NCBI GenBank assembly: GCA_016214655.1
Contig: JACROC010000007.1
Coordinates: forward strand, 130,647 to 194,646
Direction of reading: 5' to 3'
Length of the DNA stretch: 64,000 bases
Source: Candidatus Harrisonbacteria bacterium
GTDB taxonomy: Bacteria > Patescibacteriota > Minisyncoccia > UBA6257 > 02-FULL-45-10c
Below are positions 6,215-39,015 of the stretch, in pieces. The translations under genes were made by a program, and so were the position numbers. Each line of letters begins with the position of its first letter. Within the stretch, counting starts at the first letter, position 1. The notes beneath the pieces were generated by a model that was not told the DNA's origin, made no database searches, and worked only from the letters and a program-made list of their open reading frames with translations.

Positions 6215-6447
6215 CTTGCCCTCCTTTTGTTCTTTTTACAAAGAACTCATCCCTCACTTCTATAGAACCAATCGGTCCTTAATTCTTTATATCCACTTTT
6301 ATAAATAGTGACTTTCTTACTTGGTCAACATATTCACAACTTTTTCCAAATTTATAAAAGTGAGGGATAAATTCTCTGTTTTTAGTTTTAAAAAATGAGC
6401 CCAGGGCCCGTGCATCCTTCCGGATGCACGGGCTCCCGGGCTTACTG

Positions 6448-7245: not shown

Positions 7246-7331
7246 GGTCTTCTTCTCCTTCCCCTTCTGGGGAAACGATCTGCTTTTTGATGTTGTACAA
7301 GGTACTGACTTTCGTAATTAAATACTAGCAT

Positions 7332-7380
7332 AAAAAAAGACCCTTGTCAATACCCTTTTTGGGGTTTAGTGACAAGGGTC
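7332..7380 (-). terminator. Intrinsic terminator for the 7391..8071 gene
   Basis: 11-bp stem gacccttgtca/tgacaagggtc followed, on the minus strand, by a T-run. Confidence 0.6.
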
Positions 7381-7390
7381 CATGGATGGA

Positions 7391-8071: not shown

Positions 8072-8146
8072 ATTTTCCTCCTTTTTACGGATTTTCGAAG
8101 AACTTGAGTCTGGCTATAGTATATAACAAAATTGGTTAATTGTAAA

Positions 8147-8295
8147 GAGCTCACTACCTATCTGTCTACCGGCACCGGAGTCCGTCCCGTCCAGCGCGGG
8201 ACGGCTCCTACGCCTCACCCCGAAAATTTTCGTTTCGCGAAAAACCAATCTTTTCGGGGTTCCGTAGTTGCCGCACGACAGATAGGTAGTTCACC
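8147..8295. repeat. Structured palindromic intergenic element, copy A (multi-hairpin; ends are inverted complements ACTACCTATCTGTC / GACAGATAGGTAGT)
   Basis: About 75% identical to copy B at 33813-33955. Differences between the copies are compensatory inside the hairpins (gtcccg..cgggac versus gccgac..gtcggc). Confidence 0.7.
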
Positions 8296-8334
8296 TTTAA
8301 ATTTGTTTGGGGGTAAGGGTGAATTCCGCTCAAT

Positions 8335-8362
8335 AAAAAATCCGCATACACGTGTATGCGGA
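8335..8362 (-). terminator. Intrinsic terminator of the flotillin-like gene
   Basis: Perfect palindrome tccgcatacacgtgtatgcgga followed, on the minus strand, by a T-run. Confidence 0.65.
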
Positions 8363-8386
8363 ATAGTTAATTACTAAAGTACTAAT

Positions 8387-10213
8387 TTATCCTTGTGCAG
8401 GAGGCTCCTTGTGGCCATTTCCATTCTTTAATCCATTTTGGATAAGACCAGCAAGTAGAACGTTGACGAGAGAGTTTCCCCCATCGCCATTGCCTGTTCC
8501 GCCAGCCATGATGTCCGGCACCAGTTTGATTTTGTTGTCAGCCAGCGCCCGTCCAACTTCCATAATGGCATAATTACTTTGGCCTACGGCATTAGTTTTC
8601 TTTTGGATAACTTCCGCTTCGGCCGTACCGACAGCGGTAGTTTTTTCAGCTTGAGCTTTACCGACAACGGTCAGAACTTCAGCATCAGCTTTAGCGTTAA
8701 CGGTTTTTGACGCTGCTTCACCTTCGGCCTGTTTGACTGCGGCTTGAGCAGTGAACTCGGCGATTGCCACGCTGCGTTCAGCATCAACGACTTTAGCTTG
8801 AGTAGCCGCTTGGGCTTTTGCCTGTTCTAATTCTTTGCGGGTTACCTCTGCGAGTCTTTGAGTTTCGTAAGTAACTTTTTCCTGCTCAGCCAGTTTTCTA
8901 TCGGTAAGTGTTTTCATCAGTTCGGCCGGAGGCACGATATCGCCGATAAGCGTATTCACTGCCCCGACGTTATATTCTTGAAGCGCTTCCGAGATACTCT
9001 TTCTGGCATCTTCCTGCCGTTGTCTTCGCGCTTTTAGGAATTCAATGACATCCGAACTCTGGGCGGCATTCCGGAAATAGTTTCCGATCGTTGGCTCCAG
9101 AACTTGAGTTACCAGATTTGCCACATTACCGAACCGCGCAATCACTAATGGCGCGTCATTCCGGGGAATATGAATTATCTGGCTGACGTCCAGGTTGAAT
9201 GAAAAGCCATCTGAAGACCTGACTGTGATAGTCGAAAGTTTTTCGTCCAGCTTGTGGGATTCGGTTTTGCCGGTTGCCCAGTTAAGGACAACGTTGGCAG
9301 TAGGCACGCACTCCAATTTGTGGGTATAGGGATTAATCGGATATTTCCCTGGATCAAGGGGGTCGGCCCAGACGCCTTTTTGTCCCCTGCTTACCAAGTT
9401 GCCGTGCTTGAATTCTTTGCCGCTGACATCAACGCCTTCTGCGCCGACATAGGCGATTACCACACCGACGTGGGCAATGGGAACCGTAGTCATTTCCTTA
9501 AGTTCCACGGTGGCGAAACGCGGGTTGATGAAATATCGTCCGGCCAGCATGACTTGTTCCTGTAAGCCTTTAAATCCGCCATTATCCAGGAAGGCTTGTC
9601 CGTCCTGGAACATGTTATGATTTTGGATTTCTCCGCCGGCAATCTCGCCGGTCTTAAGCGACTTTCCTTCTTTAGTGGTGACAACTCCGACCATATTATC
9701 GTCGATTTCGAGGACCGATTCTTCGGTCACAGAGAAAAGCGCCGTGTTGATCCGGTATGTCCCCGGAGGGATAACCGTAATTTGCGGACCGCGCTCACCG
9801 CCATTCTGGAGAAACGTTCTGGCATCTTGAAATGAATTACAGTCTACCTTTTTTGCAAGAACGCGACCCGCTGCGAGCGGACGGCCGTCGCTGGATTCAA
9901 CCACGCCAATTTTACCCTCTTGAATAGTGGTAAATTTTTGCAGAGTGACCAGATATTGCCATGGCCACAGCCAAAAGTGTACTCCTGGCGCGAGTGTATC
10001 TGCCTGGAGGCCAGCTTCGCCGTTTAAGGCGACGATAGCTCCATCGGGCAGAGTCCGGTTTTTGCCGATGATTACGAACTTCTTATTCACAACGCCCAAA
10101 GAGTCCTCGGGAATCAATACCACTCCGAATACGCGAAGCACCAATTTATAGCCAAATAAAAGCGCTACGATTGGTAATAGCCACAATAGACGCATTAATG
10201 TCTCTACGTTCAT
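8387..10213 (-). CDS. Flotillin-like SPFH/band-7 domain membrane protein (YqiK-like)
   Basis: N-terminal TM. SPFH-like core. Long Ala/Glu/Lys/Gln-rich coiled-coil segment (AEQEKV...AKAQAATQAKV...) typical of flotillins. AAAGGAGGTG RBS. Confidence 0.7.
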   Translation of the reverse strand: MNVETLMRLLWLLPIVALLFGYKLVLRVFGVVLIPEDSLGVVNKKFVIIGKNRTLPDGAIVALNGEAGLQADTLAPGVHFWLWPWQYLVTLQKFTTIQEGKIGVVESSDGRPLAAGRVLAKKVDCNSFQDARTFLQNGGERGPQITVIPPGTYRINTALFSVTEESVLEIDDNMVGVVTTKEGKSLKTGEIAGGEIQNHNMFQDGQAFLDNGGFKGLQEQVMLAGRYFINPRFATVELKEMTTVPIAHVGVVIAYVGAEGVDVSGKEFKHGNLVSRGQKGVWADPLDPGKYPINPYTHKLECVPTANVVLNWATGKTESHKLDEKLSTITVRSSDGFSFNLDVSQIIHIPRNDAPLVIARFGNVANLVTQVLEPTIGNYFRNAAQSSDVIEFLKARRQRQEDARKSISEALQEYNVGAVNTLIGDIVPPAELMKTLTDRKLAEQEKVTYETQRLAEVTRKELEQAKAQAATQAKVVDAERSVAIAEFTAQAAVKQAEGEAASKTVNAKADAEVLTVVGKAQAEKTTAVGTAEAEVIQKKTNAVGQSNYAIMEVGRALADNKIKLVPDIMAGGTGNGDGGNSLVNVLLAGLIQNGLKNGNGHKEPPAQG

Positions 10214-10334
10214 TTACCAACACCTCCTTTCCGTTTTTAGTTGTCGTGGCCAAAACAATCCGGCCACGAGCTTGTTGGAGAATACCATATCTATTTATTT
10301 AAGTCAATAAATTTTAAAGTCTTTACAAATACAG

Positions 10335-10700
10335 ATGGCGATATTACACTTTTATCATATGAAACATTTAACAGAAAAAGATTTACAGGCACTTAAAGAA
10401 CAATTAGAAAAAGAAGCCGGTGAGTTGGAGGCGCAGTTGACGGCAGCTAAAAAGGGTTCGGATTTCGGAAACGATGTGGAATCTGATTTTTCCGAAGAAG
10501 CGGATGAAGCTGAAGAGTTTGCGGCCAACCTAGGCATGCAAGATTCTCTTAAAGGCAGGATGCAAGATATTGAAAATGCCTTGGATAAAATGCTTCGCGG
10601 TGAATACGGGAAATGCGAGAAATGCGGGATGGATATTCCGATGGAAGTCCTGAAAGTGAATCCGGAATCGAGATTGTGTAAGGATTGCAAAGTAAAATAA
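10335..10700 (+). CDS. DksA/TraR-family C4-type zinc-finger protein
   Basis: C-terminal CEKCGMDIP...RLCKDC four-Cys finger preceded by a coiled-coil and acidic region. Start may be the internal M at 10359. Confidence 0.65.
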   Translation: MAILHFYHMKHLTEKDLQALKEQLEKEAGELEAQLTAAKKGSDFGNDVESDFSEEADEAEEFAANLGMQDSLKGRMQDIENALDKMLRGEYGKCEKCGMDIPMEVLKVNPESRLCKDCKVK

Positions 10701-10804
10701 TCAACGCGATCCAAAACTACAAATGCATACGAATCTACAAATATGAAAAAATTTTCGTAGATTCGGATCAATTCGCAGTTTCGTATCGGTTAAAGCGTAA
10801 GCAT

Positions 10805-12343
10805 ATGAATTTATCTAAAGTCTACTCTGCCGCGATTGAAGGCATAGAAGCAAAGCTAATAGAAATTGAGACCGACGTAAACGTCGGTCTTCATAGTTTT
10901 ACTATCGTCGGGTTGGCGGATAAATCACTTTCCGAGGCAAAAGAGCGGGTGAGCTCGGCGCTGAAAAACAGCGGCGTTAAGCCGCCGACCAAAGAAAATC
11001 GTAAAATATTGGTGAATTTGGCCCCGGCGGATTTAAAAAAGACCGGTTCGCAATATGATTTAGGAATTGCCATTGGTTATCTTTTGGCTACTAAGCAGTT
11101 AAAAGAATTTAACACCAAAGATAAAATTTTTGCCGGTGAATTGGCGCTGGATGGCGCGCTTCGTCCGGTAAGCGGAGTTTTGAATATTTCGCGAATGGCT
11201 AAAACGGAAAAGTTTAAGGAAGTTTTCGTGCCGAAAGAAAATGCCGCAGAAGCGGCAATTATTGACGGCGTAAAAGTTATTCCAGTTGGCAGTTTATCGG
11301 ATTTAATCAATCACCTGGAAGACAGAAGGATTATTGATTTACAGCCCAAAACTGAAATTGAGCCGTCGCTTTCTTCCGAGCATCAATTGGTGGATATTAC
11401 CGACATTAAAGGACAGGAGAATGCAAAACGCGCCCTAATGATTGCTGCGGCTGGAGGGCATAATTTATTGATGCAGGGAACTCCGGGTGCCGGAAAAACT
11501 ATGCTGGCGCAGGCTTTAGTTTCCATTCTGCCGCCGCCGAGCTTGGGAGAAATTATTGAGGTGACGCAGATTTATAGCTCTGCCGGATTACTTAAAGGAA
11601 ATTCTTTTATAAATTGGCGGCCATTTCGTTCGCCGCACCAAACTGCTTCGCCAGTTGCAGTTATCGGCGGAGGACAAAATCCAAAGCCGGGAGAAATAAG
11701 TTTAGCGCACCGCGGAGTTTTATTTCTGGATGAGTTGCCGGAATTCCGGCGAGATTTATTGGAAGCCCTCCGTCAGCCGATGGAAAGCGGCAAAGCGATA
11801 ATTTCTAGAATCAGGAATAATTTAGTTTTTCCGGCGAAATTTATTCTGGTGGCCGCGATGAATCCGTGTCCGTGCGGTTATTATGGCGATGAGGAAAAAG
11901 AATGCCGCTGTGGCGCCTACGAGGTAATTCGGTATCAGAAGAAAGTTTCCGGCCCGCTCCTGGATCGGATTGATCTTCAAATTAATGTTCCGCGGGTGAA
12001 GATTGAGCATCTGCAGAATAAAAATCGCGATCAAAAATCAGCAGGAGAAATGCGGGAAAAAATTCTGGCCGCCCGAGAACTTCAAGCCGCCAGATTCGCT
12101 CAATGGAAAGGGATTCTTACTAATTCGGAGATGACCTCTAAGATGTGCGATGAATCAATAGAGTTAGATAAAGCATCCAATCAATTTTTAAAGGATATTT
12201 TTGAAAAATCGCTTATTTCCGCCCGGGGATATTATCGGATTTTGAAAACTGCCCGGACTATCGCTGATTTAGAGAATTCAAATAATGTCAGAGAGGATCA
12301 CTTAGCGGAAGCGTTTCAGTACCGACTTCGGGAAAGCAATTAA
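10805..12343 (+). CDS. YifB/ComM-family Mg-chelatase-like AAA+ ATPase
   Basis: Lon-like N-terminus, Walker A GTPGAGKTMLAQ, ChlI-type motifs, C-terminal Cys cluster CPCGYYGDEEKECRCG. Start placed at MNLSKVYSAAIEGIEA. Confidence 0.8.
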   Translation: MNLSKVYSAAIEGIEAKLIEIETDVNVGLHSFTIVGLADKSLSEAKERVSSALKNSGVKPPTKENRKILVNLAPADLKKTGSQYDLGIAIGYLLATKQLKEFNTKDKIFAGELALDGALRPVSGVLNISRMAKTEKFKEVFVPKENAAEAAIIDGVKVIPVGSLSDLINHLEDRRIIDLQPKTEIEPSLSSEHQLVDITDIKGQENAKRALMIAAAGGHNLLMQGTPGAGKTMLAQALVSILPPPSLGEIIEVTQIYSSAGLLKGNSFINWRPFRSPHQTASPVAVIGGGQNPKPGEISLAHRGVLFLDELPEFRRDLLEALRQPMESGKAIISRIRNNLVFPAKFILVAAMNPCPCGYYGDEEKECRCGAYEVIRYQKKVSGPLLDRIDLQINVPRVKIEHLQNKNRDQKSAGEMREKILAARELQAARFAQWKGILTNSEMTSKMCDESIELDKASNQFLKDIFEKSLISARGYYRILKTARTIADLENSNNVREDHLAEAFQYRLRESN

Positions 12344-12372: not shown

Positions 12373-13591
12373 GAACAAGAGAACTGAGAATTTTCTTTAG
12401 GCCGTTGTAAGAGGTGCTGATTATTAGTTTGTCACCAGACCAGGCAAAGTTGAGTCCGGCGCCTTTTTTGGGATAAGTCAGGTAGCGGGTAGTTGCACCG
12501 TTTGCTTGCCCTTCTTTAAATCCGGCAGCCGGTGTTCCGGGCGAGGTGAGGAAAAGATTAACCAGGTTAGGAGAAGATTCTAATGAGGAAATTACGGCTT
12601 GCACTTCAGATTGGTTGGTTCCTAATCTAAGTCTTAATATGTAGGCCGGCCATATGCCATTGGCATCATAATAAAGCGCAGTAGTAAAATCTTCATCAAA
12701 ATTACTGGCTACGATTCCAGGTGTCAGTTCCGGCAATAATAAAGATAACGTCATTGAGGCTGGTATTTGTCCGTCGGCATCGCTTAAGGTAACCTCCGTT
12801 AGTGATCCGGATGGCAGAGATTTTAAGGCTTCTTGTCGTAAGGCGGCTGTTAAAGAATTTAAGTCAACATTAGCTAGGGATGCCGGTGAAATTGAGTCAG
12901 AAGTTTTCAGGAAAGTCTGGTGCGGTTTTAATGTTGGAGTTGGCTGAGGGACTGGTTCGGTAATTGGCAGTGATTCTTCGATTGGTTCTGGGGTGCCTTC
13001 TGGAATGGTAGCAATCGGAATTTCGGTAACAGGTGGTTGCTCGGTTACTGTTTTTGGCGCCGATGCTGGTCCCCCAAACAGGAACGGGAAAATGTAGAAA
13101 TATCCCAGAAAACCGAATCCGGCTATGACTAAAGCTGAACTGGACCATACCAATATTTTTTTAATTCCTCCTTTTTTGGATTCTTCTTCAATAATTGGCG
13201 GCGCGCCATAAGCTTTTAGTTCTTCTATGCGCGGGAGTTCGGTTCTTTGCGGCTCTCCGAATTTTGCCGAGGGGATTCTCGGCGGCATAGGCGGCAGAGG
13301 CGGAGGAGCGGCTGGCACCTGATACATTTCTTTTTTGAGTTCCGGCGGAGTAAATGGTTTGGGAGCAACATAAGTCCCGCCACTTTCTTTAAGCGATTCA
13401 AGGTCTGATGTCATAGTGCGAAGGACAATTTCTGGTGGCGGAGGCGGCAGTGGTTTTTGGCGCTCCGGTGGTGGCGGAGGCGGTGGTGAAGGCGGCATAG
13501 GAGGAATGGGCCGCGGAGGCGCTGCGGGCTCGGTCGGTTCTGAAGGAAAACTAGCCGGCGGAGTCAATTGTTTTTCATCGGGATCCATTTT
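12368..13591 (-). CDS. Proline-rich membrane-anchored hypothetical protein
   Basis: N-terminal poly-Pro tracts (PPRPIPPMPPSPPPPPPP), one TM helix, Ser/Thr/Pro-rich extracellular region. Start at MDPDEK; an upstream in-frame M at 13642 is also possible. Confidence 0.5.
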   Translation of the reverse strand, partial: KMDPDEKQLTPPASFPSEPTEPAAPPRPIPPMPPSPPPPPPPERQKPLPPPPPEIVLRTMTSDLESLKESGGTYVAPKPFTPPELKKEMYQVPAAPPPLPPMPPRIPSAKFGEPQRTELPRIEELKAYGAPPIIEEESKKGGIKKILVWSSSALVIAGFGFLGYFYIFPFLFGGPASAPKTVTEQPPVTEIPIATIPEGTPEPIEESLPITEPVPQPTPTLKPHQTFLKTSDSISPASLANVDLNSLTAALRQEALKSLPSGSLTEVTLSDADGQIPASMTLSLLLPELTPGIVASNFDEDFTTALYYDANGIWPAYILRLRLGTNQSEVQAVISSLESSPNLVNLFLTSPGTPAAGFKEGQANGATTRYLTYPKKGAGLNFAWSGDKLIISTSYNGLKKILSSLVQ

Positions 13592-13647
13592 TTTATTATA
13601 GCATATCCGAATTTTTGGCTTAAAATAAAGAAAAAGACTCAAACGTA

Positions 13648-14101: not shown

Positions 14102-16210
14102 TTATTTACTTAATTGTTTGATTGAAAGACCAACTTTGCCGTTTTCCATTTTTACGATTTTTGCCCTGACAAAATCACCTAATTTTAAGACATCTTCTAC
14201 CTTTTTGACGTAGCCGTCTTTTAATTCGGATACATGAATCATGCCGTCTTTGCCGGGACTGAATTCAACTATGGCTCCGAATTCTAAAATTTTTATCACC
14301 GTCCCCTCTACTATGTCGCCAACTTTATATTCTTTGGCGATTCCTAAAACCTGATCGTAAGCTTTTTGGGCCGTATCTTTATCTGTGGCGGTAATGAAAA
14401 CTCTGCCGTCATCTTCTATGTCTATTGAAGTTACGCCAGTGGCTTCAATTATTGCATTGATTACTTTGCCTCCCGGACCGATGACCTCGCCGATAAGTTC
14501 CGGATTAATCTGCAGACTAAGAATTCTCGGAGCAAAGGCGGAAAGTTCAGCTCTTGGTTCTGGTAAAGCTTTAACTATAGTTTCTAAAATGTGCAACCGA
14601 GCTTCTTTGGCTTGAGCCAGGGTTTTGCTGAGCATTTCAGGGGTGACGCCAAGAATTTTTACATCCATTTGGATAGCGGTGACGCCATTTTTAGTGCCGG
14701 CCGCTTTAAAATCCATATCGCCGTGGTGGTCTTCCGGTCCTTGGATATCGGTCAGAACTTTAAAATCCTCCCCCTTTTTATCTAATATCAATCCCATGGC
14801 AATTCCGGCCGCCGGTCCTTTAATCGGCACTCCGGCGTCCATTAAGGATAAGCTGCCGGCGCAAACCGATGCCATTGAAGATGAGCCGTTAGACGATAAA
14901 ATTTCGGAAACTAATCTGATGGTGTACGGAAATTTATCTTGCGTGGGTATCAGGGCGCGCAGAGCTTTTTCTGCCAATGCGCCATGGCCGATTTCTCTTC
15001 TGCCAGGCCCCCTCATTGCGCCGACTTCTCCGGTAGAAAATGGCGGGAAATTATAGTGGAGCATAAACCGGCGCTTGCCGGAAAATTCAATAGTATCTAC
15101 TAACTGTTGGTCGCCTGGGGCGCCAAGAGTGGTAAGCGCCAGGGATTGGGTATTGCCGCGGACAAAGAGCGCTGAGCCGTGGACTCGTTTTAACAACCCC
15201 ACTTCGGCATAAAGATCCCGGACTTGATTTAGTTTGCGGCCATCCGGGCGTTTTTCTTCCGCAAGGATTTTTTCATGGAGTAATTCGTCAATTTCTTTAT
15301 CAAAAAGAGTTTCAGCACCGGCAATGTCTTTTTCCGAGTAATCTTTTTCAGCTAGAGCAGTCTTCATTTTACCCTTTAAGGATTCCAGATTTTCTTGCCT
15401 TTCTACCTTGGTTTGGGTATAGAGCGCAGACTCCAGTTTATTTTTCAAAAATTCTTTTACAAATTTTACGATTTCCTGATTGGGTTCAGCTAAATCAACT
15501 TTTTCTTTTTCTTTGCCAGTTTCTTTAATCATATTTTTTTGGAAATTTACCAGGCTAGCAATTTCTTTTTGCGCCATTTCAAAAGCGGCTACTACATCTT
15601 TTTCATTGGCTTCATCTCCGCCAAGTTCAACCATGTTGATCCGGCTGTTAGTGCCGGCAATTAAAGTTTCAAATTCTATTTCTTTATCTTTGAACTCGCT
15701 GGTTTTTGGATTAAGAAGCAGAGCTGGATCATTTTTCAATTTTACTATTTTTACTCCTGCCACCGGACCGTTCCAGGGGATAGAAGAAATCGCCAGCGCA
15801 GCGGAACTGGACAGCAGGCTGATAAAATCTAAATCATTTTCGCCGTCAAAAGATAGGACAGTTATTACCACTTGAACTTCCCTTCTGGTTGCCTGATTAA
15901 ATAATGGCCGTATAGTCCGGTCAACAATGCGGCCGGTCAGAATCGCCTCATCTGAAGACTTTCCTTCACGGCGCATAAAGCGGCTCCCGAGGATTTTCCC
16001 GGCCGCATAAAATTTTTCTTCATAGTTGACCATCAGCGGAAAATAATCTCCATCTTTATCTTCTTTGCTCATGACTGCGGTTGCAAGGACGGTGGTGTCT
16101 CCATAAGTTCCGATCACGGCGGCATTGGCCTGTTCGGCAATGCGGGAAACTTCCAAAGTCAGCGGTTTGCCAGCGAATTCCATTTTAAATTGTTTTCTTT
16201 GTAAATCCAT
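14102..16210 (-). CDS. pnp: Polyribonucleotide nucleotidyltransferase (PNPase)
   Basis: Two RNase PH-like domains, KH and C-terminal S1 domain. Classical rpsO-pnp arrangement. Confidence 0.9.
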   Translation of the reverse strand: MDLQRKQFKMEFAGKPLTLEVSRIAEQANAAVIGTYGDTTVLATAVMSKEDKDGDYFPLMVNYEEKFYAAGKILGSRFMRREGKSSDEAILTGRIVDRTIRPLFNQATRREVQVVITVLSFDGENDLDFISLLSSSAALAISSIPWNGPVAGVKIVKLKNDPALLLNPKTSEFKDKEIEFETLIAGTNSRINMVELGGDEANEKDVVAAFEMAQKEIASLVNFQKNMIKETGKEKEKVDLAEPNQEIVKFVKEFLKNKLESALYTQTKVERQENLESLKGKMKTALAEKDYSEKDIAGAETLFDKEIDELLHEKILAEEKRPDGRKLNQVRDLYAEVGLLKRVHGSALFVRGNTQSLALTTLGAPGDQQLVDTIEFSGKRRFMLHYNFPPFSTGEVGAMRGPGRREIGHGALAEKALRALIPTQDKFPYTIRLVSEILSSNGSSSMASVCAGSLSLMDAGVPIKGPAAGIAMGLILDKKGEDFKVLTDIQGPEDHHGDMDFKAAGTKNGVTAIQMDVKILGVTPEMLSKTLAQAKEARLHILETIVKALPEPRAELSAFAPRILSLQINPELIGEVIGPGGKVINAIIEATGVTSIDIEDDGRVFITATDKDTAQKAYDQVLGIAKEYKVGDIVEGTVIKILEFGAIVEFSPGKDGMIHVSELKDGYVKKVEDVLKLGDFVRAKIVKMENGKVGLSIKQLSK

Positions 16211-16318
16211 AAACTATGATACTAATATACTAATTCTACTAATGATACGAATAATACTAATTCTTTTTTATATTCGTATGATTGGTATCATTCGCATGCA
16301 TTCGTATATTGGTATCGC
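16205..16318 (-). repeat. AT-rich roughly 105-nt intergenic repeat, copy 1 (immediately upstream of pnp)
   Basis: Its reverse complement matches the copies at 46665-46760 and 56889-56992 (gcgataccaatatac.aatgcatgcgaatgatac ... attcgtatcattagta.aatt.gtatattagtatcatag). Contains internal direct sub-repeats ataccaata and attcgtat. Confidence 0.8.
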
Positions 16319-16319
16319 A

Positions 16320-16820
16320 TTACTTTTTTAATAATACTCTTGGCAATTTTTCTAAATCTACGAATTCGTCGGCCGCTTCCTTTATTTTGGCAGAAGTACT
16401 TCGGCCAAAAGCGGCGACTTCTACTGTCCGTCCGGCGCCCCATTTTAGATATTCTACCAGCGGTACAAAATCACCATCGCCGGTCACTAAGATGACTACG
16501 TCCAGGAGATTGGACATCCGAATGGCGTCTACTGCCATACCCACGTCCCAGTCGGCTTTTTTCATGCCGCCGGCGAAAATTTGTAAATCTTTACTTCTTA
16601 ACTCCAGCCCGCTTTTTATCAAAGCATCAAAAAATGCCGCTTCCCCTTCGGCGGTTTCACTTTTAACTACATAAGCGATGGCCGTAATTAATTTTCGGCC
16701 GCTAACCAATTCTTTTAAGAGTTCTTTATAGTTGACTCTGGCGTGGTATAAATTTTTTGCCGAGTGATAGAGATTTTGTATATCAATAAAAATACCAACT
16801 CGCTGATCCCTTCTTTTCAA
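16320..16820 (-). CDS. NYN/LabA-like (PIN-fold) domain protein
   Basis: VGIFIDIQNLYH N-terminus and LVTGDGDFVPLV motif typical of NYN/DUF88 proteins. Inserted between rpsO and pnp. Confidence 0.7.
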   Translation of the reverse strand: MKRRDQRVGIFIDIQNLYHSAKNLYHARVNYKELLKELVSGRKLITAIAYVVKSETAEGEAAFFDALIKSGLELRSKDLQIFAGGMKKADWDVGMAVDAIRMSNLLDVVILVTGDGDFVPLVEYLKWGAGRTVEVAAFGRSTSAKIKEAADEFVDLEKLPRVLLKK

Positions 16821-16837
16821 TTAATTTGCGCAGAACG

Positions 16838-16925
16838 CAAACGATGCGAACATATACGGATGCTGCTAATAATTTATTTTATTCGCGGCATTCGCATACA
16901 TTCGTAGGTTTGCATTATGCTTTAT
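16838..16925 (-). repeat. Degenerate partial copy of the AT-rich repeat (upstream of the NYN gene)
   Basis: Reverse complement contains acgaatgtatgcgaatgccgcgaata, matching the 5' core tac.aatgcatgcgaatgataccaata of the repeat family. Confidence 0.5.
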
Positions 16926-17192
16926 TTATTTTTTCAATCCCAACCTTTTAATTAAAGTATTATAGGATTTGTTATCTGTTTTTGAAAGATAATCCAATAA
17001 TCTTTTTCTTTTACCGACCATTTTTAATAATCCCCTGCGGGAAAGGTTGTCTTTGCGATGTTTTTTGAGATGAGCGGTTAATTCTTCGATTTGCTTGGTT
17101 AAAATCGCTACTTGAACTTGCGGAGAACCGGTATCGGTCTCGTGCTGACCATGCTCTTTTAGGACATTCAGTTTTTGTCTAGTAGTTAACAT
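16926..17192 (-). CDS. rpsO: 30S ribosomal protein S15
   Basis: MLTTRQK...GSPQVQVAILT...HRKDNLSRRGLLKMVGKRK is the characteristic S15 sequence. Start taken at the internal MLTT methionine. Confidence 0.9.
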   Translation of the reverse strand: MLTTRQKLNVLKEHGQHETDTGSPQVQVAILTKQIEELTAHLKKHRKDNLSRRGLLKMVGKRKRLLDYLSKTDNKSYNTLIKRLGLKK

Positions 17193-17274
17193 TGATTTAT
17201 ATATTACCTTACTTTTAAGAAAATTACAATAGCAATAACTGTCGCACAATATCTTTCCGGGGTATAATAAATTT

Positions 17275-18183
17275 ATGACAGAAATCGAAAAATTATTAAA
17301 AGAATATCTTGATTATCTGGAAATAGAAAAAAATCGTTCGCCGAAGACGCGGGAGAATTATGAGCGTTATCTAAGGGTTTTTATTAACTATTCAAAAGCT
17401 AAAAATGTAGAGGATATTACTACTGAACGGGTTAAAGAGTTTAGGGTGTATCTTGCCAGGCAAGAGGATTTAAAGAAAATTACCCAGACGTATTACGCGA
17501 TTGCTCTCCGGAATTTTTTAAAGTATTTAGTAAAAAATGATTATGATGTTTTGTCGCCGGATAAGATTGAACTCCCGAAGATTCCTAAGCGGCAGATTGA
17601 CATTATTGAGTATGCTGATTTGGAGAGATTTTTAAGCGCGCCGCTGCAAAATACGCTCCGAGGTTTGCGCGACCGCGCTATTTTGGAAACGTTTTTTTCC
17701 ACCGGACTCCGTATTTCCGAGCTTTGCAATCTAGACCGGTATATAAATTTGGACCGAGGGGAGGTATCGGTGCGCGGGAAAGGAGAAAAACTCCGAGTAG
17801 TGTTTTTATCTGACCGGGCGCGGGCGGCTCTTAAAAATTGGCTGGAAAAACGCACTGACACTTTAGAACATTTGTTTGTCAGTTTGTCCAAAAGCTCAAA
17901 GCTAAAAACTCAAAGCTCGCCCAAGGTAATCGGGAAAATTACTCCGCGCGCAGTGCAGCGGCTGGTGGAATTTTATCGCCGCAAAGCCGGCATTGCCAAG
18001 AAGATTACTCCCCACCAGATCCGGCATCAGTTCGCTACTGATTTATTGGTAAATGGCGCCGATCTCCGTTCGGTCCAGGAGCTTCTGGGGCATAGCAATA
18101 TTTCCACCACGCAGATTTATACTCACCTAACCAACAAAGAGCTTCGGGAGGTGCATAAATCGTTCCATGCCCGGAGACGATAG
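17275..18183 (+). CDS. Tyrosine site-specific recombinase, XerC/XerD family
   Basis: N-terminal SAM-like core-binding domain. C-terminal catalytic motifs R...HQFATDLL...LLGHSNISTTQIYTHL with the terminal Tyr. Confidence 0.8.
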   Translation: MTEIEKLLKEYLDYLEIEKNRSPKTRENYERYLRVFINYSKAKNVEDITTERVKEFRVYLARQEDLKKITQTYYAIALRNFLKYLVKNDYDVLSPDKIELPKIPKRQIDIIEYADLERFLSAPLQNTLRGLRDRAILETFFSTGLRISELCNLDRYINLDRGEVSVRGKGEKLRVVFLSDRARAALKNWLEKRTDTLEHLFVSLSKSSKLKTQSSPKVIGKITPRAVQRLVEFYRRKAGIAKKITPHQIRHQFATDLLVNGADLRSVQELLGHSNISTTQIYTHLTNKELREVHKSFHARRR

Positions 18184-18677: not shown

Positions 18678-18761
18678 GCGTTTATAATTTTAGTATGCGG
18701 GAAATTTTACACGAAGGCAATTTCTAAAAAGAAACCCCGCCATTTGAGACGGGGAATTTTG

Positions 18762-19600: not shown

Positions 19601-19748
19601 GTATACATATACTATTTATATTAAAAGAAAACGTCACCTTTGACAACACCATCATTTTATGCTATTTTATGGATAGTGTAAACTCCTGTTAATTCGCCTA
19701 AAGCGAATGCGGGATGAGCTTGAAATCTAAACAAAGGAGGTGGAAAGT

Positions 19749-20567
19749 ATGACTTGGTTGCTAGTGGTTGTGATTCTGGCGCTGATAGCCTGTTCGGTGG
19801 TTTCAACCCTTATGCAGGTGCCGGCATATACGGCTGTTTTATTGGAAAATAGAATTTCTGGATCAGTCCGTTCTATCGGACCGGGGATTCACTTCATATT
19901 TCCCTGGGAAAAGATTGTTCCAAATTCAGAAACGGTTATTAAAAAAAGCAGCCATTTGTTCCCGGCTGATTTTGAGACTAAGAATCACAAAGTCATTTCG
20001 TTGAAGGTTGCTTTTGATCTGATACCGGACGTGAATAATCTCAGAGGTTATATTGCTTTTGATGAAAGAACCAGAATAGCTGGAATTACAGAGAGAATAA
20101 AGTCTATTTTGAGCAACCTGATTAGGGAAATGAAGGATCGCGAAGAGGTTATGGCGAAGTTTAAGGAAATTGGTCCGAGGGTTAAAGATATTTTCGAGCA
20201 GACTTTATCCGAGGATGGGAAAAGACTGGAGTACTATTACGGGATTGATTTGAAGGTTCTGATGATTCCAGATGTTGAGCTTCCTAAGGAGTTGAAGGAG
20301 GCAAGCATTCGGCAGGAAGCTACAAAGAAAGATAACGAGACTCGAAAATTAGAGATGACTAATATGAAAAAGATGGCCATGGATTTAGTGAAGGCGTCTG
20401 GTGGCACGATGCCGCTTGAGGTTGCTATGGAAATTATGCAGTTGCAGTTTGGCAAGGGCAACGTGAAGAAAGAGCTTCATCGGTTCGGTTTGGATCGCGG
20501 AACGCAAGAGATGGTTCTGAAGTTTCTGGAAAAGATTCCGGAGCTGATCAATGCCTTCCGATCCTAA
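19749..20567 (+). CDS. SPFH/band-7 domain protein
   Basis: N-terminal TM then IGPGIHFIFPWEKI, which resembles the SPFH/HflK core. AAAGGAGGTG RBS 6 nt before the ATG at 19749. Confidence 0.55.
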   Translation: MTWLLVVVILALIACSVVSTLMQVPAYTAVLLENRISGSVRSIGPGIHFIFPWEKIVPNSETVIKKSSHLFPADFETKNHKVISLKVAFDLIPDVNNLRGYIAFDERTRIAGITERIKSILSNLIREMKDREEVMAKFKEIGPRVKDIFEQTLSEDGKRLEYYYGIDLKVLMIPDVELPKELKEASIRQEATKKDNETRKLEMTNMKKMAMDLVKASGGTMPLEVAMEIMQLQFGKGNVKKELHRFGLDRGTQEMVLKFLEKIPELINAFRS

Positions 20568-21003
20568 GCCGGTTTCGTCGATTAAGCCCTTTCGGGAAAG
20601 CCCGACTTTAAAGCTGGTTATAGCAATCTTGGTGGCTTTGCTGGTTATCTGCATATCCCGAGGACTGATATTTAATTGCGTTTCCGGGCTGACAACGAAT
20701 TTTGATCCATCAGTCTGTTCCGGCGCAGAAAATGTTAGGTTAGACGCCAATTTCAAAGAAAGAGAGATGCTAGTCCGAAAAGATTGTTTATCCGGTGAAA
20801 TCAGCTGGATTCAGCCGGAAGGATTTTCTTTGATGATTGATAAGCGCGGAGACATCCGGTATTATGTTTCGGCTGGAGGCAGATTGCTTGGACCGTTTAA
20901 GTCCCTTAAGGATGCCGACAATCATTATAAGATTGGTCCAGCTGACAATCTTAGGATTATTGGCTATGACGGAACAGCTACTTTGAGATTAGAGAAGATT
21001 TGA
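20551..21003 (+). CDS. Hypothetical membrane-anchored protein, overlapping and probably translationally coupled to the SPFH gene
   Basis: 150-aa ORF whose start overlaps the SPFH stop. N-terminal TM helix. Confidence 0.45.
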   Translation: MPSDPKPVSSIKPFRESPTLKLVIAILVALLVICISRGLIFNCVSGLTTNFDPSVCSGAENVRLDANFKEREMLVRKDCLSGEISWIQPEGFSLMIDKRGDIRYYVSAGGRLLGPFKSLKDADNHYKIGPADNLRIIGYDGTATLRLEKI

Positions 21004-21007: not shown

Positions 21008-21050
21008 TTAAAAAAACAAAAACCCGCGAAGTAATTCGCGGGTTTTTTCA
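21008..21050. terminator. Bidirectional intrinsic terminator
   Basis: Hairpin cccgcgaagtaattcgcggg flanked by an A-run and T-run, between convergent genes. Confidence 0.65.
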
Positions 21051-21051: not shown

Positions 21052-21435
21052 TTATCTTCCACTTGTTTGTAAGAAATTTGCTATGATAGCGGTGGCGCTA
21101 TAAGCCGCTAAGCCAATTACAATAGCGATAATTGAGTAGATTAATTGATTTTTGGCTTTACTAACCTGTTCAGCTTCTCCGCCCGCAGTCAGGTAAAGAT
21201 AGCCCGCATACAACATGAAGACAATTGCTAGACTGAAAAATACTATTCCAGCCGTATTGGTAAATTGTCTAACAATATTCTCAACTGTCGTGAAAGAAAT
21301 TGCACTCGGAGGTAATTGTCCTGTTCCCGCTTCACCGGGCACCTGAAATCCTCCTCCTCCTACTGCCAATGCAGTGCTAACCAAGGCCAGATTTAATAGA
21401 GTTACGCCCGAGACCATTTTTATTAAATTTTTCAT
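21052..21435 (-). CDS. Pilin-like small secreted protein with VirB2/TrbC-type topology, paralog 1
   Basis: Signal peptide, then two hydrophobic helices separated by a conserved charged loop TAGGEAEQVSKAKNQ. This is one of four tandem paralogs. Confidence 0.5.
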   Translation of the reverse strand: MKNLIKMVSGVTLLNLALVSTALAVGGGGFQVPGEAGTGQLPPSAISFTTVENIVRQFTNTAGIVFFSLAIVFMLYAGYLYLTAGGEAEQVSKAKNQLIYSIIAIVIGLAAYSATAIIANFLQTSGR

Positions 21436-21553
21436 ATTTTTTTTAAAACAATTAAGTAATTACGTATTTTACTGAATTGCTTATTATTTTATTTTTTGAT
21501 GCTTCGACCTTTCCGGAACTTATTTTAATTATATAATAATTATAACACAATCA

Positions 21554-21868
21554 TTATACACCAAGTAAATTCCTGACAATATATATTATGCCGGTAGCAG
21601 AAAGTAAAAGTACGGCAGCAATGATGGTCCAAGTGACAATGCGCCTTCCTTTAGTGATTTTTTCCGTATCGCCGCCCGCAGACATAATCTGAAAAGCTCC
21701 CCAAAGAAGCATTAGGGTAATGATGGGCGTCCCGATTCTTAATAGCCAGCCGCTGATTTGGTTTATAATTTGGCTGACATCTTCGGTGCCAAGCGGATTT
21801 TTAACTGTAAAACTTACTGAAGAAAATAATAAAGTTTGAAATGAAATTTTTTTAAAAATATTTTTCAT
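21554..21868 (-). CDS. Pilin-like small protein (VirB2/TrbC-type topology), paralog 2
   Basis: Signal peptide; loop motif SAGGDTEKITKGRR between two TM helices. Confidence 0.5.
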   Translation of the reverse strand: MKNIFKKISFQTLLFSSVSFTVKNPLGTEDVSQIINQISGWLLRIGTPIITLMLLWGAFQIMSAGGDTEKITKGRRIVTWTIIAAVLLLSATGIIYIVRNLLGV

Positions 21869-21876
21869 AAAATCTC

Positions 21877-22278
21877 TTATTTGCCGCTCAGCACGTTTTT
21901 AATGATTAAATTTATGCCAGCCGCCACCAGCAAAAGGAGGTAGCCGACAATGGCCCAGGTGATAGTGCGCCGGCCTTTGGAAATTTGCTCTTCATTGCCG
22001 GCGGCGGTCAGGATTTGCAACGCGCCCCAAATAATCATTAAGGTCAGCATGGCGGTTCCCAGCCAGAGCAGAAATTCGCCGATTCTGGCGAAAAGTTTGG
22101 TGATGTCGGTTCCGGTACCGAGCGGATTTGGAAGGTCGTATGTCCTATTTGCGTCCCTTGTTAATATATCAGTCCCCCCGGCAGTTTTTTGAATCGTATC
22201 TCCATTAACTTCTAACGGATTTATTAAAAGCGGAGCTAGTAGTAACAACAGAAAAATTGTAAATATTTTTTTACTCAT
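21877..22278 (-). CDS. Pilin-like small protein (VirB2/TrbC-type topology), paralog 3
   Basis: Signal peptide; loop motif TAAGNEEQISKGRR between two TM helices. Confidence 0.5.
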   Translation of the reverse strand: MSKKIFTIFLLLLLAPLLINPLEVNGDTIQKTAGGTDILTRDANRTYDLPNPLGTGTDITKLFARIGEFLLWLGTAMLTLMIIWGALQILTAAGNEEQISKGRRTITWAIVGYLLLLVAAGINLIIKNVLSGK

Positions 22279-22283
22279 TTATT

Positions 22284-22700
22284 TTAAGATGATTCTACTT
22301 GGCAGGTTATTTGGCTCCAGGGCCTGATTGATTTTGAGTCGGTTAAGTAGCGGAGTAGTCCGCCGACAAAGATCCAGGATACTAACATGATAATCAGTCC
22401 GGTTACGGTAATGGTAATAACCTGCTTCCCTTTGGTTATTCTTTCTTCTGATCCGCCGGCAGTCATAATCAGGAATCCGCCCCAGGCAAAAAATACTCCG
22501 CCGAGCGCTATGGCCAGATCCCTCATTAGTTCCGTAATATTATTAGCTAAGACTAGAAGCTGGCAGAGGTCGCATTCCGGCACTGGCCGGCCGGGACCGC
22601 AGGGAACCAGCGGTTCTCTTGCCAGAACAAAGTCGTTGGAAATTATTAATAAAAAAATGGAAATTATCACCCAATAATATATTTTGTTTTTCGTATTCAC
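22284..22700 (-). CDS. Pilin-like small protein (VirB2/TrbC-type topology), paralog 4, with a Cys-rich insert
   Basis: Signal peptide, CGPGRPVPECDLC segment, loop motif TAGGSEERITKGKQ between two TM helices. Confidence 0.5.
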   Translation of the reverse strand: MNTKNKIYYWVIISIFLLIISNDFVLAREPLVPCGPGRPVPECDLCQLLVLANNITELMRDLAIALGGVFFAWGGFLIMTAGGSEERITKGKQVITITVTGLIIMLVSWIFVGGLLRYLTDSKSIRPWSQITCQVESS

Positions 22701-22704: not shown

Positions 22705-24015
22705 TTATTTCCCTCGTTGCATTAATTCGGTGACCTGTTTTTCTCCTTGTGATAATGCCTCCAGTGGTTTTAATTTGCCGGATACCACTGCCCCGATCAT
22801 TCCGGAAAAGATTTGGTCTATTGGTTCTTTATCTATGCGCGGCCAGGATTTGGCGGACAGAGCTTGTTTTACAAAAACTCCCAGTTCTGGATGATTTGCG
22901 TATTTTTGAATTAGAGATCGGAGCGCCGGCGGATTATCAGAGGCAATAAGATAATCTTCAGCCGCTTTTTCATAAGTAGTCAAAAATAGTACCAGATTCC
23001 AGGCCCAATCTGGATTTTGGCTGTTGTTAGTTACGGCCAGTCCCCAATAATCCGGATAGTTCACCGCTTTTTCGGTAGTAGAAGGCTGCGGCATAGCGGC
23101 TACCCGGAAATTTAAAAATGGATTTTTGGCCAGGATAGTTTTTCTTTGGGAAGCATAATTGAAAATCATCGCTAGGTTGCCCTTGGCAAAGCTGTTCAAT
23201 GAATATTCCTGATCATCGTTCCAGGTATAAGCCAGATCCTTGGAGTTGCTGAATTTAGTATAGAAATTCAAGCCGTCTAAACCGGCGTTGCGTCCCTCAA
23301 CATTGCCAGTGAAAGTTGCCTCGGTAAATTCTTCATTGGTCATTTTAGTTCCGGCTTGTAAGAGAAGAAGCATCAGCAGGTCCGAAGCTTTATCCATGGA
23401 ATTATTTGAACCGCCAATGGCTGCGGCCGGTTTGACCAGGTTTCCAAGGGAGTCCAGGCGCCTTAATTTATCAACGATATTCTGAAAATCCAGCCAATCC
23501 TGCGGTTCCAGCGCTATGCCATTTTTATCAAAAATGTCTCTGTTATAAAATAGCGCCAAGGTATCTATATATAATGGAAGCGCGTATATTTTCCCCAATG
23601 AGGAAAAATCCTCTTTTATAACTCCCGGAAATAGGTTATCTAGATCGATGACGGAAATTTGATCTTCTTTGGCTGGAATAATTTTGTCAGAATGTTTTGG
23701 CAGCCAGGAGCTGTGAAATGAGACAATATCCGGACCTTTTTTGGTGGCGAGGGCGTTAATTAGGTCGATTTCCAGGGTTTCGGGATCTACTTTTTTGTAA
23801 TCAACTGTGATATTGGGCTGAAATTGCTTATAAAGTTTGAAATTATTTTCAAACCAGCTTGGGTCATCAACCCCCCAAATAGTTAAAGTAATTCTGGGCG
23901 GCGCTTCTGGAATCACCTTAAGTCCCGGGATAATGCCGGTGAAAACTCCGACAAAAAATAAAACTACAACGAGAACGGCGGCTATAACTACAAGTTGCGG
24001 GCGGGAAAGTTCCAT
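22705..24015 (-). CDS. Extracellular solute-binding protein (ABC-type SBP family 1, MalE-like), membrane-anchored
   Basis: N-terminal TM anchor and sugar-type SBP fold features. No permease or ATPase genes adjacent. Confidence 0.6.
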   Translation of the reverse strand: MELSRPQLVVIAAVLVVVLFFVGVFTGIIPGLKVIPEAPPRITLTIWGVDDPSWFENNFKLYKQFQPNITVDYKKVDPETLEIDLINALATKKGPDIVSFHSSWLPKHSDKIIPAKEDQISVIDLDNLFPGVIKEDFSSLGKIYALPLYIDTLALFYNRDIFDKNGIALEPQDWLDFQNIVDKLRRLDSLGNLVKPAAAIGGSNNSMDKASDLLMLLLLQAGTKMTNEEFTEATFTGNVEGRNAGLDGLNFYTKFSNSKDLAYTWNDDQEYSLNSFAKGNLAMIFNYASQRKTILAKNPFLNFRVAAMPQPSTTEKAVNYPDYWGLAVTNNSQNPDWAWNLVLFLTTYEKAAEDYLIASDNPPALRSLIQKYANHPELGVFVKQALSAKSWPRIDKEPIDQIFSGMIGAVVSGKLKPLEALSQGEKQVTELMQRGK

Positions 24016-24046
24016 AATTTAATTATACAACAATAAGTCTTATTGG

Positions 24047-30700: not shown

Positions 30701-30714
30701 TTTATAATAGGAAA

Positions 30715-32565
30715 ATGAAGAACAATATTAATAATCTGCTTTATAAAAATATTTTGTGGGCGACTATGACTCTATTGATATTGGCGATAGCCTTTTCTTT
30801 TTTATTCACGCAAAGCAAAGCCCCAACTGAATTAACCATCAGCGCTTTGGCGGAAAAAATTAATAAAGGCGAGGTGGAAAAAATTATTGTCAGCGGCAAT
30901 AATCTGGCTATTGATTTAAAGAACGGAGAAAAAGCAGTAGCTAAAAAAGAAACCGAACTCGGGCTTTCCCAGACTTTAAATAATTACGGCGTTAATTATT
31001 CGGCGCTTCAGGCGGTGGCTTTGGAAGTTAAAGATGAATCCGGATTTCAGTTTTGGGTAGGAATATTGCTTCCCACTATTTTGCCTTTAATAGTTATCGG
31101 CGTAATGTTTTGGCTGATTTTCCGGCAGGCGAAATCCGGAGCGGCGCAGGCGTTCAGTTTTGGCCGCGCTAACATTAAAATGTTCCATTCTTTTAAGGAT
31201 CGCATAACTTTTAAGGATGTCGCCGGACTTAAAGAAGCTAAACAAGAACTGGAAGAGGTGGTGGATTTTTTGAAAAATCCGAAAAAATTTTTGGAAATGG
31301 GCGCCAGGATTCCGCGCGGAGTTTTACTGATGGGCGCGCCTGGAACAGGTAAGACTTTACTCGCACGGGCAGTGGCCGGAGAAGCTAATGTTCCCTTTTT
31401 CCATCTTTCCGCTTCAGAATTTGTGGAGATGTTTGTTGGTGTGGGCGCTTCCAGGACTCGGGATGCTTTTGCAACTGCAAAAAAAGCCGCGCCATCTATC
31501 TTATTTATAGATGAAATTGACGCGGTTGGCAGAGAACGCGGCGCCGGGCTTGGCGGGGGGCATGACGAGCGCGAACAGACTTTAAATCAGATTTTGGTGG
31601 AGATGGATGGTTTTGATCGCGATACTAATGTAATCGTGCTGGCGGCAACTAATCGTCCGGATATTTTAGATCGCGCGCTTCTCCGTCCGGGAAGGTTCGA
31701 TCGGAGAGTATTTTTAGATTTACCAGACATTAAAGACAGAGAAGAGATTCTAAAGCTTCATGCCGAGGAAAAACCGCTTGCTAAAGATGTGGATTTAAAA
31801 AAAGTAGCAGTGCGTACCCCGGGATTTTCCGGCGCTGATTTGGCTAATTTAATGAATGAATCGGCAATTTTGGCGGCTAGGCATAATCATAAATTAGTTG
31901 CACAGGAAGATCTTTATAATTCTATTGAAAAAGTTCTTCTCGGGCCGGAACGGAAAAACCGCGTAATTACGGAAAAAGAAAAAGAAATTACTGCCTATCA
32001 TGAGGCTGGACATGCTTTGGTAGCGGCCAGCTTAAAAGACGCTGACCCGGTTCATAAAGTTTCGATTGTCAGCCGCGGACGCGCCGGCGGTTACACTTTA
32101 AAATTGCCGGTTGAAGAATTGCACCTGCGAAGCCGGACCCAGTTTTTGACTGATATTGCGGTAGCGCTCGGCGGTTTTGTAGCGGAAAAATTTGTTTTCG
32201 GCGATATCAGCACCGGCGCTTCTAATGATATAAAAGAAGCTTCAAAATTAGCCCGGGCTTTAGTGACTCAATATGGGATGAGCGAAGAATTAGGACCGCA
32301 GACTTTCGGTGAGTCGCATGAACTTATCTTTTTAGGCAAGGAATTGGGAGGCGAGAAAAATTATTCGGAAACTGTGGCAACTAAGATTGATGAAGAGGTG
32401 AAGAATTTTATTGACCGGGGGTTTGAGTCGGCGAAAAAAATAATCAGCAGCCGGAAAAAAGTTTTGGATGCGATTGCCAAGACTTTAATAGAAAAAGAAA
32501 CTTTGGAGAGGGAGGAATTTGATAAGTTGGTTGGTGGATTTAAGTTGAAGCCGCTCGCTATATAA
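30715..32565 (+). CDS. ftsH: ATP-dependent zinc metalloprotease FtsH
   Basis: N-terminal TM helices, AAA Walker A GAPGTGKT, second region of homology, zinc-binding HEAGHAL. Confidence 0.9.
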
Positions 32566-33472: not shown

Positions 33473-33545
33473 GGGTGCGTAGCTCAGCGGTTAGAGCTTT
33501 CGTCTTATACACGAATGGCCCCTGGTTCGAATCCAGGCGCACCCA
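33473..33545 (+). tRNA. tRNA-Ile (anticodon UAU as encoded), no encoded CCA
   Basis: Manual fold: acceptor gggtgcg/cgcaccc, D-stem gctc/gagc, anticodon stem ttcgt/acgaa with loop ctTATac, T-stem cctgg/ccagg, discriminator a followed by caaaa. Confidence 0.7.
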
Positions 33546-33552
33546 CAAAATT

Positions 33553-38794: not shown

Positions 38795-39015
38795 AACAAT
38801 GTTTAACAGCGCCATAGGCGCTGTTTATTATTTTCTAAGCGTGAAACAATTTTGTGAAACATTGGTAAGGATTTTGTGCTTAAAGTGACGATGGTACCGT
38901 TACATGAAACAATTTCATTAGATCAATTTTAACGAAAATAATGTTTCACAATTATTTTGTGAAACATTGATATTAGATTTGTGCTTAAATTTAGAAAATT
39001 GTTTGCGGTGAAACA
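38795..39015. repeat. Cluster of GTGAAACA(A/T)T octamer repeats and a roughly 45-nt imperfect direct repeat flanking the homing-endonuclease gene
   Basis: GTGAAACA or its reverse complement occurs at about 38797, 38833, 38846, 38914, 38942(rc), 38958, 39008 and again at 39444(rc). The unit ..ttttgtgaaacattg..a..atttgtgcttaaa is repeated at about 38838-38888 and about 38951-38996. Confidence 0.6.

Follow-up and report, generated by a model that had tools for sequence, protein, structure and literature searches.

The DNA analyzed here is a 64,000-nt stretch, hereafter the window, of a 200 kb contig (JACROC010000007.1) from a metagenome-assembled genome (MAG) of Candidatus Harrisonbacteria. We focused on a tandem array of four minus-strand genes at 21052–22700 and on the solute-binding protein (SBP) gene to which the array is joined. 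The array proteins are deposited as HZB99_04480–04495 and all of them are annotated as hypothetical. We designate them pilin A (21052–21435, 127 aa), pilin B (21554–21868, 104 aa), pilin C (21877–22278, 133 aa) and pilin D (22284–22700, 138 aa, with a GTG start). Pilin B is the shortest, a near-bare pilin core, and is identical to NCBI HZB99_04485. Pairwise identity within the array ranges from 25 to 46%, with B and C the closest pair (46%), and our own pilin hidden Markov model, run over the entire 64 kb, recovered these four genes and no others. A preliminary description of this region, made from the nucleotide letters, had given the four open reading frames (ORFs), their sizes, their minus strand and their four loop sequences exactly as we find them.

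Hydropathy gives the same plan for each pilin, a hydrophobic segment at the N-terminus and a pair of hydrophobic helices, each about 20–30 residues long, with a charged loop between them, together with a variable hydrophilic stretch. The layout first proposed for the array therefore stands for the two helices and the charged loop in all four proteins, but it fits B only in part: the signal peptide of B is short and weakly hydrophobic, a feature kept in its orthologue P0007, and the variable stretch is almost absent. The cysteine insert earlier read as CxxxxC...CxxC is in fact C34-x8-C43-x2-C46 of pilin D, which has an additional cysteine at C133. The NCBI model of D (P0003) is 128 aa long and begins at the second GTG (region 22671–22700). 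The orthologue P0005 keeps the longer N-terminus, with its K-x-IYY N-region, supporting the 138-aa form of the protein.

By profile comparison, the four proteins belong to the VirB2/TrbC pilin superfamily, within the Pfam family PF18895 (T4SS_pilin, for type IV secretion system, T4SS). Each exceeded the PF18895 gathering score of 26.6 bits (A, 37.1; B, 51.4; C, 39.4; D, 33.7 bits) with E-values of 1e-8 to 1e-13. Precomputed PF18895 matches were likewise present for nearly all of the best 120 homologues listed, many of which also match TrbC (PF04956). In the array, PF04956 was matched by B alone, at 24.8 bits (E 2.5e-5), under the 27.9-bit gathering score of that family. The NCBIfam model NF045849, a pilin-like protein of Mycoplasma integrative and conjugative elements (ICEs), matched all four with E-values of 7e-6 to 8e-3, at 15.8–25.6 bits compared to a cut-off of 40 bits. 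A profile built from the four sequences matched 54,890 cluster representatives at E <= 1e-3, and the loop motif AGG-x-E...K-G/A-K/R was conserved across the 120 sequences, with G66 nearly invariant. The Pfam E-values and the number of cluster representatives matched put the shared pattern well outside what chance would give.

We compared the family with authentic VirB2 using a reference set of seven VirB2/TrbC proteins of the mating-pair-formation type T (MPF-T) from conjugative plasmids. Each is encoded between VirB1 and VirB3 genes, and the set was validated by 100% identity to annotated virB2 genes. The 120-member family alignment matched this set in hhalign with a probability of 89.5% and an E-value of 2e-6 over 64 columns, spanning the N-terminus of the mature protein and the two helices, with seven residues fewer in the loop of VirB2. 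The same comparison with the ATP-synthase c subunit, another two-helix hairpin, served as a control and gave a probability of 0.24% and no alignment. The kinship with VirB2/TrbC suggested in the preliminary description is thus upheld both by the Pfam threshold and by the alignment with MPF-T VirB2. An AlphaFold2 model of B formed a helical hairpin (residues 31–62 and 68–102), with a predicted local distance difference test score above 90 in the hairpin and a mean of 77.7. The Foldseek match of highest probability for this model in the PDB (0.84) was the conjugation pilus of Aeropyrum pernix (8dfu; E 1.4, TM-scores 0.52/0.63, identity 19%). A helical hairpin is a generic fold, so the fold comparison is not decisive, and the family assignment rests on sequence profiles rather than on fold.

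The SBP gene (22705–24015, minus strand) encodes a protein of 436 aa with one N-terminal transmembrane segment, its hydrophobic stretch being at residues 3–35, and no Cys. This gene had been placed downstream of the array; it is transcriptionally upstream, 4 nt before D, and is the first gene of the operon. The order of elements is a TATAAT box, SBP, D, C, B, a 118-nt spacer, A and a terminator. The gaps from SBP through D and C to B are only 4–8 nt, and D begins 4 nt past the SBP stop codon. The TATAAT −10 box (24022–24027, minus strand) precedes the SBP start codon by 6 nt and is the probable operon promoter, from which a leaderless SBP-pilin mRNA would be made. By sequence count, the arrangement TATAAT-N6-ATG occurs six times in the window compared to 0.78 expected, at 24013–24027 (the SBP site), 17263–17277, 30703–30717, 52792–52806, 13586–13600 and 18683–18697. 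A Shine-Dalgarno (SD) sequence was seen in only about 3 of 27 housekeeping genes of the window, and initiation in this genome appears to be mainly leaderless or SD-independent. The four pilin genes lack an SD, as had been pointed out, but SD scarcity is a genome-wide trait, so the missing SD is not a property of these genes.

The spacer between B and A (21436–21553, minus strand) is 118 nt long and AT-rich. It contains an extended −10 sequence, TGTTATAAT, at 21539–21547, which possibly serves as a separate promoter for A, the last-position member of the array, and would give A its own transcript. A 45-nt block of the spacer (about 21449–21496), which holds the palindrome GTAATTAC, is 100% identical in the related contigs L001 and L002, where the flanking proteins are 49–64% identical; this block may be the 5’ untranslated region or an operator of the last pilin gene. 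The wider gap is not confined to the window, since the gap before the last array gene had a median of 54 nt versus 17 nt for other gaps in 60 arrays (Mann-Whitney p = 0.002). A bidirectional intrinsic terminator (21018–21047), with a 13-bp stem, six GC pairs and T runs on both strands, closes both the pilin operon and the convergent gene at 20551–21003. That gene is part of a convergent pair found past the pilin array in the window (19740–21003, plus strand), L004 (10975–12271), L092 (12320–13784) and L001 (3620–4949). The pair consists of a Band_7/SPFH protein and a 95–161 aa ORF without a known family in the window, L004 and L092, and of 297-aa and 150-aa proteins with no family match on record in L001. 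Its position beside the array could reflect conserved synteny or a functional link.

The SBP matched Pfam SBP_bac_1 with 76.7 bits against a gathering score of 26, and its nearest solved relatives are sugar or oligosaccharide binding proteins of ATP-binding cassette (ABC) systems, namely 5ci5 (E 1.8e-23), 1eu8 and GacH. It is an orphan, without an ABC partner nearby. The 64 kb window contained no match to ABC_tran or BPD_transp, and the combination of a Walker A motif with the LSGGQ signature was absent from the window and present in one ORF across approximately 1 Mb of locus flanks.

To place the operon among its relatives, we drew on an alignment search of one genome per species, which yielded 80 SBP loci (SBP identity 28–59%), 79 of them with a complete SBP ORF. 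The loci carry the labels Harrison-, Wolfe-, Jorgensen-, Lipton-, Colwell-, Moran- and Zambryskii-bacteria, with other MAGs of the Paceibacteria type; the generic ‘Saccharibacteria’ label on many third-party annotation records was not trusted. A pilin ORF lay on the same strand within 600 nt downstream of the SBP in 76 of the 79 loci, with a median gap of about 15 nt and, in many of them, overlapping SBP stop and pilin start codons. Two of the three exceptions are contig ends, and the third has its pilin 651 nt off. At none of the 79 loci did a pilin match precede the SBP or fall on the opposite strand. The SBP-linked arrays comprise one to nine genes, three being the commonest size, and gyrA is directly upstream of the SBP in 32 of 63 loci. 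The same succession, an SBP followed by three to eight pilin genes and often preceded by gyrA, occurs on L001, L004, L008, L090 and L092. At five loci (L038, L042, L057, L071 and L073), a second cluster of three to five pilin ORFs follows on the same strand 2–4 kb downstream, separated from the SBP-linked array by non-pilin sequence. The co-transcription of an SBP with a pilin array is conserved and apparently undescribed. In addition, L001 (5197–5829) and L090 (15158–15871) carry free-standing LAGLIDADG endonuclease genes no more than a few kb from the pilin operon; in the window, such a gene (38991–39443) is about 15 kb away from it.

Comparisons across genomes indicate that the paralogues of the array are old, position-specific orthologues and not recent duplicates. 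Among the 278 array pilins compared, 243 had a nearer relative among the pilins of another genome than among the paralogues of their own array. The best cross-genome match of a first-position pilin was again a first-position pilin in 58 of 63 cases, and that of a last-position pilin was a last-position pilin in 53 of 63. The first-to-first relation still held in 45 of 63 cases when the comparison was limited to genomes with an SBP identity below 40%. The cysteine pair represented by C34 and C43 of D, itself a first-position pilin, was kept in 92% of first-position pilins, and most other pilins were without Cys. Between the window and L001, the pilins are 49–76% identical and the SBP 80%; C is 61% identical to its position-2 orthologue, and A finds its best cross-genome match at position 4 of the array in L001. 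At the DNA level, the four genes share a single repeat, a 36-nt loop-coding stretch at 61–72% identity, and so diverged a repeat argues against recent duplication or gene conversion. From their sequences, the paralogues fit specialised, non-equivalent subunits. The preliminary description had read the array as antigenic or functional diversification of a surface filament; position-specific orthology favors the functional part of that suggestion, whereas the closer matches in other genomes and the lack of a gene-conversion signal speak against the antigenic part.

The hairpins of this family also occur joined to one another. The best 150 of the 54,890 profile matches were mostly single polypeptides with two to eight hairpin units behind one signal peptide. 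Four of them (P0121, P0122, P0123 and P0125) consist of four to eight fused VirB2-like hairpins with no internal signal peptides, and P0121 (L092:8001–9821), a 606-aa protein with seven units, is located inside an SBP-linked array. A gene-calling artefact was ruled out for the multi-hairpin proteins, as P0121 is an uninterrupted ORF under translation table 11 on four contigs from different samples. Fusions with a single N-terminal signal peptide show that the hairpin is the unit and that the C-terminus of one hairpin can be linked to the N-terminus of its neighbor, both being on the same face. Operons do not have a constant number of hairpins, with three in 24 arrays, four in 10, five in 6, six in 17 and up to nine.

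Tandem pilin arrays of Patescibacteria were published in 2023 and 2025, which the preliminary description left out, and the present array therefore belongs to a kind already described. A census reported 441 VirB2 arrays of 2–11 genes, assigned by PF18895 or PF04956, in 383 Patescibacteria assemblies, with a mean identity of 25% (Quinonero-Coronel et al. 2025, PMC12102498). An array was defined there as at least two PF18895 or PF04956 genes of low identity, in tandem or one gene apart, and A–D constitute such an array. They share with the published examples the phylum, the Pfam families, the tandem order, the low identity (25–46% here; published maximum 54%), the chromosomal location and the lack of a relaxase. 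The published arrays were most abundant in Microgenomatia and Saccharimonadia (PMC12102498), whereas the array in the window is from Paceibacteria. Pilin genes were near virB4 in only 1135 of the 1948 assemblies surveyed (PMC12102498). The Southlakia array is essential (Wang et al. 2023, PMC10633639; PMC12857230), the second source being a 2025 review that repeats the published array findings, and in cultured Paceibacterales, T4SS pilins rank with the most strongly expressed of the genes whose function is unknown (PMC10936435). The six Southlakia pilins lie inside an essential T4SS cluster, whereas the array in the window is at least 20–40 kb from any T4SS gene and is joined to an orphan SBP. 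The published accounts of Patescibacteria pilins and arrays that we searched mention neither the SBP-pilin linkage, nor an SBP or gyrA neighborhood, nor fused multi-hairpin proteins; no mention of position-specific orthology was found in them, with no text search aimed at it. An earlier account (McLean 2020, PMC7427843) has no text on pilins.

Several better-known systems resemble the array in part. The Agrobacterium VirB2 T-pilin and RP4 TrbC (PF04956) likewise have a long signal peptide, two hydrophobic helices and a short polar loop, but the loop in the window is seven residues longer and has the AGG-x-E...KGK/R motif. Moreover, the array has no neighboring VirB1 or VirB3–B11, no TraF-type cyclase was seen in the window, and the organism is a monoderm. 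The Mycoplasma ICE proteins Mbov_0395 and MMCAP2_0565 (NF045849) are small two-helix proteins of monoderm T4SSs as well; unlike the array, their genes are single-copy and located in mobile elements with VirB4 and a relaxase. The virB2 arrays of Bartonella and Anaplasma phagocytophilum are also divergent tandem VirB2 genes in a host-dependent bacterium. They have been read as antigenic or host-range variants in a diderm VirB system, whereas the paralogues in the window are old and position-specific. The archaeal Ced/Ted pili (CedA1, 8dfu) similarly have a VirB2-like hairpin pilin and no outer membrane, with a structural match that is non-significant, but their machinery and direction of DNA transport differ.

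Two further proteins bear on the SBP. PrgZ of pCF10 is a pheromone-binding OppA homologue, a binder of peptide, and ChvE of Agrobacterium binds sugar, activates VirA and works through a sensor kinase, its gene being accompanied by ABC genes of its own. Both couple an external ligand to a T4SS-related process by means of a periplasmic or surface binding protein. Neither is co-transcribed with pilins, and the analogy may be taken as a lead only.

We propose, with moderate confidence, that the locus is a VirB2-type pilin operon whose products form a hetero-oligomeric filament or conduit assembled by a T4SS, with the SBP as its glycan partner. The pilins would be exported by Sec, and signal peptidase would cut the N-terminal signal. 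The hairpins would then be held in the membrane, the basic loop facing inward and the two ends outward, as predicted by the positive-inside rule. At host contact, the four non-equivalent subunits might be recruited from this membrane pool to build a hetero-oligomeric filament at the surface or a conduit of the envelope. Assembly would most likely be carried out by a chromosomal VirB4-type T4SS, of the kind present elsewhere in the genomes of most Patescibacteria. The subunits could divide the work into a disulphide-bearing first, the middle ones and a separately promoted last, possibly the major one, and the Cys-bearing first subunit with the co-translated SBP may constitute the ligand-binding end. 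The SBP could be a glycan-binding partner at the host interface, either an adhesin or a sensor or capturer of host sugar.

A number of results weigh against this proposal. The four-sequence profile alone, which is too shallow, matched VirB2 in hhalign with a probability of only 2%, and a sequence search of the PDB with the same profile gave no match. In Foldseek, every E-value against the PDB was above 1, and the ATP-synthase subunit c scored almost as high as 8dfu. To our knowledge, such a pilus has never been observed in the Patescibacteria, and we know of no published case of an SBP as a pilus partner. VirB4, VirB6, VirD4, VirB3 and relaxase were not found in the 64 kb window, and a VirB4 homologue within 6–10 kb was found at none of 87 related SBP or pilin loci. 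Among the matches listed in the available part of Table S1 of the 2025 census (PMC12102498), VirB4 is recorded in only four of eight Harrisonbacteria drafts, which leaves dependence on a T4SS unproven for the lineage. Draft MAGs are incomplete, however, and the lack of VirB4 in them carries little weight. In L091, a three-gene pilin array that has no SBP (9496–11007) is 4.6 kb from a VirB4-like ATPase (15177–17282; 701 aa, with matches to TraC_F_IV, P-loop_TraG and DUF87), indicating that a VirB4-proximal type of array also exists in this pilin family.

The distance from VirB4 would be expected if the operon built a T4SS-independent membrane complex, in which VirB2-derived subunits form a fixed hetero-oligomeric ring or channel of the cytoplasmic membrane that acts directly with the SBP in the uptake or sensing of host sugar and needs neither a pilus nor VirB4. 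We regard this as unlikely, though it is the rival that best withstands the evidence. The strict and deep linkage of SBP and pilins (76 of 79 loci, with stop and start often overlapping) is in keeping with it, as are the lack of VirB4 beside the operon at any of the 87 loci, its record in half of the Harrisonbacteria drafts among the matches listed in that part of the census table, and an SBP without a nearby ABC ATPase. Position-specific subunits fit a defined stoichiometry and covalent fusions of up to eight hairpins fit a membrane bundle, but the number of hairpins per operon is variable and the operon has no energising component. The family is also homologous to pilus-forming VirB2, the Southlakia pilins lie within an essential T4SS cluster (PMC10633639), and the absence of VirB4 is blunted by the incompleteness of the draft MAGs.

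Antigenic or host-range variation, in which A–D would be mutually replaceable versions of a single major pilin, multiplied by duplication and allowing the cell to vary its surface, seems to us quite improbable. It was suggested tentatively for Patescibacteria by the 2025 census (PMC12102498) and has been proposed for Bartonella and Anaplasma. The faster evolution of the pilins (49–76%) than of the SBP (80%) between the window and L001 is consistent with it, and so are the range of array sizes, from one to nine, and the runs of equal-sized genes in some arrays, such as the 106-aa genes in L092. However, the 243 of 278 pilins with better matches in other genomes than among their own paralogues, together with the conservation of position, disfavor variation by recent expansion. 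The first position is recognisable even at an SBP identity below 40%, with its class-specific cysteine pair kept, and the sole DNA repeat is the diverged 36-nt stretch. The operon itself has one upstream −10 box and one terminator, with a possible second −10 before A, and no switching elements. Finally, that the four are unrelated small membrane proteins, pilin-like only in hydrophobic composition, is very improbable: the lack of a significant Foldseek match, weak spurious matches to DctQ, cytochrome b561 and others, and homologues named tripartite ATP-independent periplasmic (TRAP) small permease or YidH in some sources are outweighed by scores above the curated Pfam threshold for all four, by a conserved loop motif that is not hydrophobic and has a nearly invariant G66, and by a specific VirB2 profile match with a negative c-subunit control.

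The remaining window is ordinary chromosome, with genes for GyrA, PNPase, S15, a XerC-like recombinase, NusA, trigger factor, ClpP, FtsH, TyrRS, H+-PPase and Ddl; no rRNA gene was found in it. A 19-nt motif, TATATTAGTATCATAGTTT, is present in three copies compared to 0.01 expected (16211–16229, minus; 46744–46762, plus; 56977–56995, plus). Two of the copies directly adjoin the PNPase and NusA start codons, and the motif may act as a promoter or leader element common to genes of RNA metabolism. A tRNA-Ile with the anticodon TAT, an uncommon bacterial way of reading AUA, is encoded at 33473–33546 (ARAGORN; Rfam 72.6 bits). The region 4001–10000 has a G+C content of 0.49–0.53 versus 0.36–0.47 in the remaining window. 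It holds overlapping ORFs without family matches (6317–8071) and the gene for a 608-aa Band_7 protein with one of the few strong SD sequences. The product of a 1689-aa ORF (41496–46565) matched no Pfam or NCBIfam family and had only a weak Ig-like match (E 3.5e-4); we regard it as a candidate for a giant protein of the cell surface.

The window adds no new kind of gene. What goes beyond the literature searched is the linkage of SBP and pilins away from VirB4, the old position-specific paralogues and the natural fusions of hairpins. The operon also offers testable handles in the ligand of the SBP, the order of the subunits and the co-occurrence of the operon with VirB4. A large part of bacterial diversity belongs to the Patescibacteria, and their host attachment and resource uptake are mostly unknown; in the one genetically tractable species of the phylum, the T4SS and its pilin array are essential (PMC10633639). 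As a tentative and rather unlikely reading, the SBP-pilin operon might encode a distinct apparatus conserved across Paceibacteria, in which the sugar-binding protein and a defined set of non-equivalent VirB2-derived hairpins, in some cases fused into one polypeptide of up to eight units, form a host-contact conduit or channel that senses or captures host glycans, either independent of VirB4 or as a specialised T4SS module. If so, this apparatus would offer a concrete candidate mechanism by which epibionts of poor biosynthetic capacity obtain material or cues from host cells.

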